Below are positions 41,955 to 42,909 of a stretch of DNA of 45,294 nt, one piece after another; position 1 is the first letter of the stretch; each line of letters opens with the position of its first letter. Both the position numbers and the translations under genes were made by a program. The stretch is from Escherichia phage vB_Eco_AMO_3701M: sequence record PQ474795.1; one strand, 5' to 3'. The notes under the pieces are model-generated. The model saw only the letters and a list, made by a program, of their open reading frames with translations. It made no database searches and had not been told where the DNA came from.

Positions 41955-42471
41955 TTGTGGTACAGAGATCTTCGTAAGTATGGGTCTGATGAAGCATGGT
42001 CATTGACCGCCACGGGAAGTGGGTTAAGTTTGAGGACTACCAGTAAGCTTGACCTGAAGCTGTACGCGAAGCTGGAGCGCAAGCTGCTGAACTACAAAGA
42101 CCAGTATCGCACGCGCCTTATGTCGAAAGTTGCGCGAAGAAATGGGTCAGTTACGACATGTGTCAGGGATGGAGTGATGTCTCTCGCAACTGACATCCTG
42201 AAACGAAGCGGCCTTGCGCCGCTGTCGCCGAGAGCAAACACCCGAATATACAAGCGCTGCCGTAATGCGCTGTACCATGAGATACAGGCACAGGCGCAAA
42301 GCTGTCCGCGCCTGCGGATTCCAGAACGGGAAGGCCGTGAATCTCGGTGAGTTTAAAACACAGGAACGCGCAGCTATCGCTAATCGGCTATTTAATTACT
42401 GGAAATCGCTGGGGTACGATGATATTCCAACGAAACCGCAGAGACGACAATACATCTGGAGACACAAATGA
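41955..42471 (+). CDS. AP2-domain DNA-binding protein (frame change near 42214-42350)
   Basis: AGGAG RBS before TTG 41955; C-terminal RKAVRACGFQNGKAVNLGEFKTQERAAIANRLF resembles AP2. Confidence 0.45.
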
Positions 42472-42909
42472 CTACTATCGCATTTGATGGAAAGACAATG
42501 GCCTGTGATACACGCGTTGTGTGCGGAAGTAACTGCTACAACACTGACACAAAGATATACGAGAATGATACTTATGTTATAGGTGTAGCGGGTGATGCTG
42601 GAGTTGGCACTATGCTTATCGACTGCCCGTATATCCTCCAGGCCAGACCATTACGAATTCGATTTCGAAGCCCTGGTGTTCGTGAAAGACACAGAAAAGG
42701 TGTACAAAGTCGCGTTCTATAAATCATGGGATTGTGCACTTAGTTCAGTTATTCCGGTTGCTGATGTGTACGCCGCCGTGGGGTCTGGCTCGCCATATGC
42801 ATTAGCCGCTATGGAGTGCGAATATTCGGCGCATGGCGGCGTAGCCGTTGCATCGAAGTTCGACACTAACACCGGCGGCAAGATTATTACCAAACAACTA
42901 TTAAGATAA
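42468..42909 (+). CDS. HslV-like Ntn-hydrolase peptidase (frame change near 42592-42722)
   Basis: N-terminal Thr (MTTIAFDG), VIGVAGDAGVGTML, AAVGSGSPYALAAMEC collinear with HslV motifs. Confidence 0.65.

Follow-up and report, generated by a model that had tools for sequence, protein, structure and literature searches.

Two overlapping open reading frames (ORFs) in the genome record of Escherichia phage vB_Eco_AMO_3701M (PQ474795.1; its entire 45,294 nucleotides are called the window here) raise the question of whether this phage encodes one proteasome-like peptidase or only pieces of one, and of how such a peptidase would act. An earlier note, made from the letters of the window, had read the ORFs 42468..42722 and 42592..42909 as a single protein collinear with the peptidase HslV, lacking an HslU partner of its own and possibly using HslU of the host or serving as a protease decoy. 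The analysis presented here favors, with a probability of about 0.85, one intact gene for a 146-residue threonine hydrolase of the PPH family, which was split by a sequencing error and whose product probably acts without an unfoldase.

Both ORFs lie exactly where they had been reported, and the motifs quoted from them are present. Megablast of positions 42200-43000 retrieved, at identical coordinates, OR061069.1 (Escherichia phage M01, a Kagunavirus-like siphovirus of the Guernseyvirinae; 45,294 bp, 'partial genome'), together with more than 100 Kagunavirus-type phages, in which the gene is labelled 'peptidase HslV family protein', 'HslV family peptidase', 'ATP-dependent protease' or 'protease'. 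When 42468-42909 was aligned with its counterparts in phages CR01 and UTEC10, which are intact at 441 nt, a single indel was found: positions 42648-42655 read CCATTACG in the window and CCATACG in the two relatives. It is this extra T that splits the PPH gene into the two ORFs. Removal of one T at 42651/42652 restores the frame and gives a 146-residue protein, residues 1-145 of which are identical to the CR01 protein. The two ORFs are therefore one gene, as had been proposed. OR061069.1 shares the extra T, differs from the window within the PPH gene at position 42904 only, and carries an annotation of the downstream piece alone (42595..42909, hypothetical protein).

The presence of the extra T in both the window and the stored GenBank copy might be taken to mean that the frameshift is genuine, PPH being a pseudogene or subject to programmed frameshifting in this phage. 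The state of the whole record argues against it. When 22 translated genes of the well-assembled relative Bas73 (PQ850603.1) were searched against the window, 22 frame switches were needed to cover them, including those in the genes for the large terminase (2), portal (1), major capsid protein (2), DNA polymerase (2), helicase-primase (1) and exonuclease (4), and the genes flanking PPH on both sides are likewise broken. A plaque-forming phage cannot carry all these breaks in essential genes; therefore, the record must be full of indel errors. In addition, no slippery heptamer is present at CCATTACG, every other homologue is in frame (more than 270, of 145-146 residues), and strong purifying selection spans both halves of the PPH gene, with a ratio of non-synonymous to synonymous substitution (dN/dS) of 0.035-0.21. 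Because of these four observations the frame change is assigned to a sequencing artefact, a one-base insertion error in a low-quality record. Programmed frameshifting was rejected on the missing slippery site and the in-frame relatives, and a real frameshift of either kind is scarcely credible.

The repair also sharpens the family assignment. The unrepaired N-terminal ORF scored 13.2 bits against Pfam Proteasome (PF00227), whereas the repaired protein scored 23.0 bits, slightly above the gathering threshold of 22.4, and this was its only Pfam match. PHROG 1040, 'peptidase HslV family', was matched at 1.3e-34. A profile of close homologues was then searched against 1.84 billion cluster representatives (50% identity clusters), of which 4,207 matched at E <= 1e-3; nearly all of them are 135-155 residues long and match from residue 1. 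Conservation was assessed in 99 diverse family members that are 30-42% identical to the query, 61 of which match Pfam Proteasome at E <= 0.01. Among the 99, K29, G105, G107 and A111 are invariant, while M1, T2, D14, G42, S106, D132 and G136 are conserved in at least 90%. This set corresponds to the active-site set of the proteasome, namely Thr1, Asp17, Lys33, Gly47, Ser129-Gly130 and Asp166, so that an equivalent of the catalytic Lys33 is present as Lys29. The protein begins with M-T, without a propeptide.

The fold was predicted with AlphaFold2. The model used was obtained with the 99 diverse sequences; a run with 22 close homologues gave a predicted local distance difference test score (pLDDT) of 35 and was discarded. 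It can be seen that, first, the model shows a proteasome-beta type fold of the N-terminal nucleophile (Ntn) hydrolases, an alpha-beta-beta-alpha sandwich in which the first strand carries the nucleophile at its N-terminus. Secondly, a helix at residues 44-52 is followed by short turns only before the next strand, that is, helix H2 is absent, and the C-terminal elements S12/H5 are absent as well. The top structural match of the model is BPH (Betaproteobacterial proteasome homologue), and the fold is shared by at least 40 viral proteins in BFVD (E <= 1e-3). The corrected sequence thus has both the Thr/Lys arrangement and the Ntn fold, in agreement with the earlier view of a proteasome-beta-like Ntn hydrolase with an N-terminal threonine. 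The positions of the gene, its active-site codons and its neighborhood are given in Table 1.

Table 1. Positions in the window of the PPH gene, its predicted active-site codons and surrounding features.
Feature	Position	Strand	Remarks
PPH gene, proteasome-beta-like N-terminal-threonine hydrolase	42468..42909	+	442 nt in the window; 441 nt / 146 residues without the extra T
Single-nucleotide insertion	42651..42652	+	TT against a lone T in intact relatives; alignment with CR01 and UTEC10
Thr2 codon; Thr1 after Met1 removal, predicted nucleophile	42471..42473	+	at least 90% of 99; aligned to E. coli HslV Thr1
Asp14 codon, equivalent of proteasome/HslV Asp17	42507..42509	+	at least 90% of 99; aligned to HslV Asp17
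Lys29 codon, equivalent of catalytic Lys33	42552..42554	+	invariant in 99; aligned to HslV Lys33
Gly42 codon, oxyanion-hole glycine (proteasome Gly47)	42591..42593	+	at least 90%; aligned to HslV GFAGG
Gly105-Ser106-Gly107 codons (downstream frame), equivalent of proteasome Ser129-Gly130 / HslV GSGG	42781..42789	+	G105 and G107 invariant, S106 at least 90%; aligned to HslV IGSGG
Asp132 codon, equivalent of proteasome Asp166	42862..42864	+	at least 90%; aligned to D of 'yrDaysGG' in beta5
Upstream gene for a 97-residue basic protein	42177..42471	+	TGA stop overlaps the PPH ATG (ATGA); frame-broken near 42288
Hairpin in the 59-nt spacer (42910-42968) between PPH and the TTG-start holin-like gene (42969)	42924..42963	+	minimum free energy -20 kcal/mol, z -2.37
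Examples of other frame-broken stretches	1424-2673, 2689-4156, 7895-8943, 29442-31628, 32654-33898, 35883-38122

Within the superfamily, the name HslV, which had been given to the gene, does not hold. The HslV equivalogs were not reached (13.1 bits against a cutoff of 157.75 for TIGR03692, 12.4 against 137 for NF003964), and in a search of PDB sequences the family profile matched HslV (5e-13), 20S beta5 (7e-12) and BPH (5e-10) almost equally; BPH and the 20S beta subunits are at least as close to it as HslV. PPH is therefore not an HslV orthologue; it is a minimal member of the proteasome-beta/HslV/BPH superfamily (MEROPS T1-like Ntn hydrolases). Compared with HslV (ClpQ; PDB 1ned, 1e94, 1m4y), it is about 30 residues shorter, lacks H2 and has no adjacent hslU gene. 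In contrast to the 20S beta subunits (PF00227; beta5/beta5i), it has no propeptide, no alpha-subunit partner, neither H2 nor H5, and is about 55 residues shorter. BPH (PDB 5ovs/5ovu) is longer, at about 185-200 residues, contains H2 together with a long, acidic pore loop, and is encoded on bacterial chromosomes, whereas PPH is phage-borne.

It was described previously that the PPH family, whose members have about 140 residues and occur in Caudovirales and prophage contexts, radiates from the BPH cluster (Fuchs et al. 2021, PMC8665760); its members keep the catalytic triad and Gly47, have no propeptide and no S12/H5, and are among the only homologues without H2. The protein studied here resembles them in every feature compared: it belongs to the same length class and has no insertions or extra domains, it keeps Thr1/Asp17/Lys33/Gly47 and lacks a propeptide, helix H2 and the C-terminal S12/H5 are missing, and it is encoded by tailed phages or prophages of Proteobacteria with BPH as the nearest characterized neighbor. 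By comparison with the published description, no difference was detected. Homologues were found in 358 phage records, from Guernseyvirinae, jumbo phages and phages of Vibrio, Klebsiella and Microbacterium, and one metagenomic homologue lies in a phage-like contig; every Kagunavirus and Jerseyvirus genome examined carries the gene. The gene is thus already known: PPH has been published (PMC8665760), it is annotated in many relatives, and the description of the jumbo phage pSal-SNUABM-04 in 2020 remarked that HslV-like genes only, and no HslU, are encoded (PMC7823757).

If PPH is a peptidase of this kind, the question arises of which partner, if any, it works with. That it stands alone is confirmed, since the annotations of the complete Bas73 genome and of nine other contexts contain neither an AAA+ nor an HslU gene. 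PPH might nevertheless take the place of host HslV and recruit host HslU, and the resulting ATP-dependent hybrid protease would degrade folded proteins of the host or the phage. In favor of this, HslU is present in E. coli, the host, a phage AAA+ partner is absent, and PPH, as a homologue of HslV, shares its MTT start and its catalytic residues. When the family was aligned with E. coli HslV by hhalign (97.5% probability), Thr1, Asp17, Lys33, the glycine of GxAG and the GSG motif were in register, but HslV residues ~62-85 (helix H2, ~25 residues) had no counterpart in PPH, and H2 is also missing from the confident model. It was reported that the C-terminal tail of HslU enters pockets between HslV subunits, for which Phe54, Phe57, Ala79, Lys80 and Gln114 of the E. 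coli and H. influenzae proteins are named (PMC6429459). In the same alignment, which at 22% identity is approximate, Ala79 and Lys80 fall within the deleted H2 segment, and Phe54, Phe57 and Gln114 are replaced by Thr48, Ile51 and Pro96. Furthermore, some homologues come from phages of Microbacterium, and Actinobacteria have no HslV entry in the distribution table of PMC8665760. Because the pocket residues are deleted or substituted and no AAA+ gene is annotated in the ten contexts, recruitment of host HslU, judged at the level of sequence, is unlikely, and the hybrid protease as a whole is decidedly improbable.

The other role that had been suggested, that of a decoy, fares worse. PPH would then be a decoy or poison subunit without catalytic relevance, disabling host proteolysis by titrating HslU or by assembling together with host HslV. 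Other phages do inhibit host proteases, T4 PinA acting against Lon for example, and PPH is small, partnerless and homologous to HslV. A decoy, however, has no need of a catalytic set, and here the whole set is kept in a family whose members are only 30-42% identical; the HslU-docking surface is not conserved, and the loss of H2, a ring-contact helix, makes co-assembly with HslV less plausible. A decoy role conflicts with this family-wide conservation and is very improbable.

A third possibility concerns the phage head. The earlier note had placed the gene outside the head module, upstream of the lysis genes, which is correct, and had seen no prohead protease elsewhere. The head module of Bas73 comprises a large terminase, a portal, a Mu-F-like protein, decoration proteins, a scaffolding protein and a major capsid protein, and no prohead protease family is detectable in it. 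PPH might accordingly be the missing prohead or virion maturation protease. Head layouts of the SPP1/P22 type work without a prohead protease, and it is to this type that a separate scaffolding protein and a Mu-F-like protein point; the absence, real as it is, is normal and does not imply that PPH takes the role. The neighbors of the gene are small accessory ORFs and the head genes are far away, a BarnCat homologue coexists with an annotated capsid maturation protease, and elsewhere PPH is found near replication genes, near PhuZ or in a tail-module insert. Maturation of the capsid by PPH is therefore hardly to be expected.

Our preferred reading is that PPH is probably an unfoldase-independent threonine peptidase acting on peptides, unfolded proteins or a specific non-capsid target. 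We infer catalysis, oligomeric state and independence of HslU from the conserved features. Host methionine aminopeptidase would remove Met1 and expose Thr1, as for E. coli HslV, which likewise starts MTT. The hydroxyl of Thr1 would then attack the peptide bond, with Lys29 and Asp14 as a putative proton relay and Gly42 as the predicted oxyanion hole. BPH, the closest solved relative, forms a tetradecameric double ring, according to a title cited in PMC8665760, and PPH probably self-assembles into rings like BPH or HslV.

Several points weigh against this reading. Membership in PPH is based on the published description and not on clustering with the representative WP_042125023.1; the mapping of the HslU pocket depends on a profile alignment at low identity; a genuine frameshift in the isolate retains a very small probability; and the literature searched contained no enzymatic, structural or genetic experiment on any PPH member. 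Moreover, related folds can be ligases (connectase) rather than peptidases. That PPH is a specific protein ligase or transpeptidase like this proteasome-family enzyme, and not a degradative peptidase, is given little credence here.

The surroundings of the gene were analyzed for clues to its role. In Kagunavirus and Jerseyvirus genomes the order is small ORFs, a basic protein of 97-121 residues, PPH, holin(s), endolysin, small ORFs and terminase. The basic protein upstream (97 residues in the window) has homologues within Guernseyvirinae only (Bas73, CR01, SS3e; 36% identity, with an insertion, in the Jerseyvirus SS3e), is unrelated to the protein at this place in other PPH-carrying phages and has no Pfam match. 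The ATGA overlap suggests translational coupling of its gene with PPH. PPH would be co-transcribed, and is probably translationally coupled, with this upstream gene in an array leading into the lysis cassette; the basic protein is possibly a lineage-specific partner or regulator of PPH.

Downstream, the spacer hairpin has the arms AUCCUCCAG...CUGGAGGAU, and its 3' arm holds the Shine-Dalgarno sequence GGAGGA (42957-42962) of the holin-like gene, so that the hairpin may gate holin expression translationally. The 59-nt spacer is 100% identical in M01, CR01, UTEC10 and Bas73, whereas the flanking PPH proteins differ by up to ~24%. Being invariant, the spacer offers no covariation with which to assess the hairpin. 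Scans for promoters and terminators gave nothing above chance, and a PADLOC scan gave no defence-system match.

In other phages the setting of PPH varies widely. In Klebsiella phage BUCT_49532 the gene is part of a three-gene opposite-strand insert of the tail module, in phage Dewey it is the last gene before the genome end, in BarnCat it lies upstream of the terminase, in a myovirus it follows an exonuclease and a DNA polymerase, in SPN3US-like phages it is gene 1, and in a Vibrio phage it is fused to a C-terminal extension. In Pseudomonas phage EL, a nucleus-forming jumbo phage, an HslV-family gene (locus 4001-4549) stands immediately upstream of the PhuZ tubulin gene, and for Erwinia phage RAY, which is related to EL, localization of an HslVU-family accessory protein to the phage nucleus is reported in a preprint. 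No conserved partner gene was found up- or downstream of PPH across these lineages. A general linkage of PPH with lysis was considered and rejected: Guernseyvirinae and a single metagenomic contig show the adjacency, whereas EL, SEGD1, BUCT_49532, the Manatee Spring myovirus and the Vibrio phage do not. These settings reveal no general association with head genes either. JSS1_004, from a paper on antagonism of Dnd defence, proved to be a T7 gp0.7-like kinase, HslV occurring there only as a host transcript. In Guernseyvirinae, where PPH has a fixed place immediately before the holin-endolysin cassette, it might still be a threonine protease that needs no unfoldase and has a specific regulatory target, either processing or removing a lysis-timing factor or degrading a host defence or stress protein; this is put forward as a doubtful, tentative possibility. 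If true, a viral proteasome homologue would for the first time have a function assigned to it.

Some further features of the family were observed. The Kagunavirus protein is unusually rich in cysteine near the active-site strands (Cys13, Cys19, Cys23 and Cys89; codons within 42504-42536 and at 42732-42734). Among 22 close homologues C19 and C89 are invariant and C13 is conserved in at least 90%, while the cysteines are not conserved in the wider family; they might represent a lineage-specific disulfide, redox or metal feature. The 'protease' gene 12 of the Microbacterium phage BarnCat (locus 4269-4799) is annotated from 4305, beginning VKIAWD without an N-terminal Thr. The tblastn match begins 36 nt farther upstream, at 4269, so that a misplaced start in the annotation probably conceals the catalytic Thr. 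In some phage homologues the PPH-like domain is extended at its C-terminus by ~120 residues, as in Vibrio phage 1.193.O (locus 4001-4801) and in BFVD proteins of 263-279 residues.

As for the record as a whole, the window and OR061069.1 are collinear, equal in length and free of indels relative to each other, yet differ at 3,204 positions (7.1%). The differences form a mosaic, with none in some 1-kb bins and up to 247 in others. Identity to CR01 is 97.3% for OR061069.1 and 92.0% for the window, and at 43300-44000 the window is nearer to another endolysin allele (~86%) than to OR061069.1 (82%). The window could be another version, a mixed-population consensus or a perturbed sequence. CR01, a sister record from the same submitters as OR061069.1, required 12 frame switches. 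The heavy indel errors in these two records explain their inflated counts of coding sequences, 104 in OR061069.1 and 95 in CR01 against 73-81 in relatives.

Taken together, the relevance of this window is mainly one of quality control, its frame change belonging to a set of at least 22 indel errors in the record, and the appropriate annotation is that of a single 146-residue PPH-family (HslV-like) peptidase. No new biology is added by it, since published work and the annotated sister genomes had already made apparent the opportunity that it points to: PPH, with 4,207 cluster representatives at 50% identity, is a phage-borne and catalytically intact family of great size, and Kagunaviruses infecting E. 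coli K-12, such as the BASEL phage Bas73, would offer a convenient system in which to search for PPH substrates.
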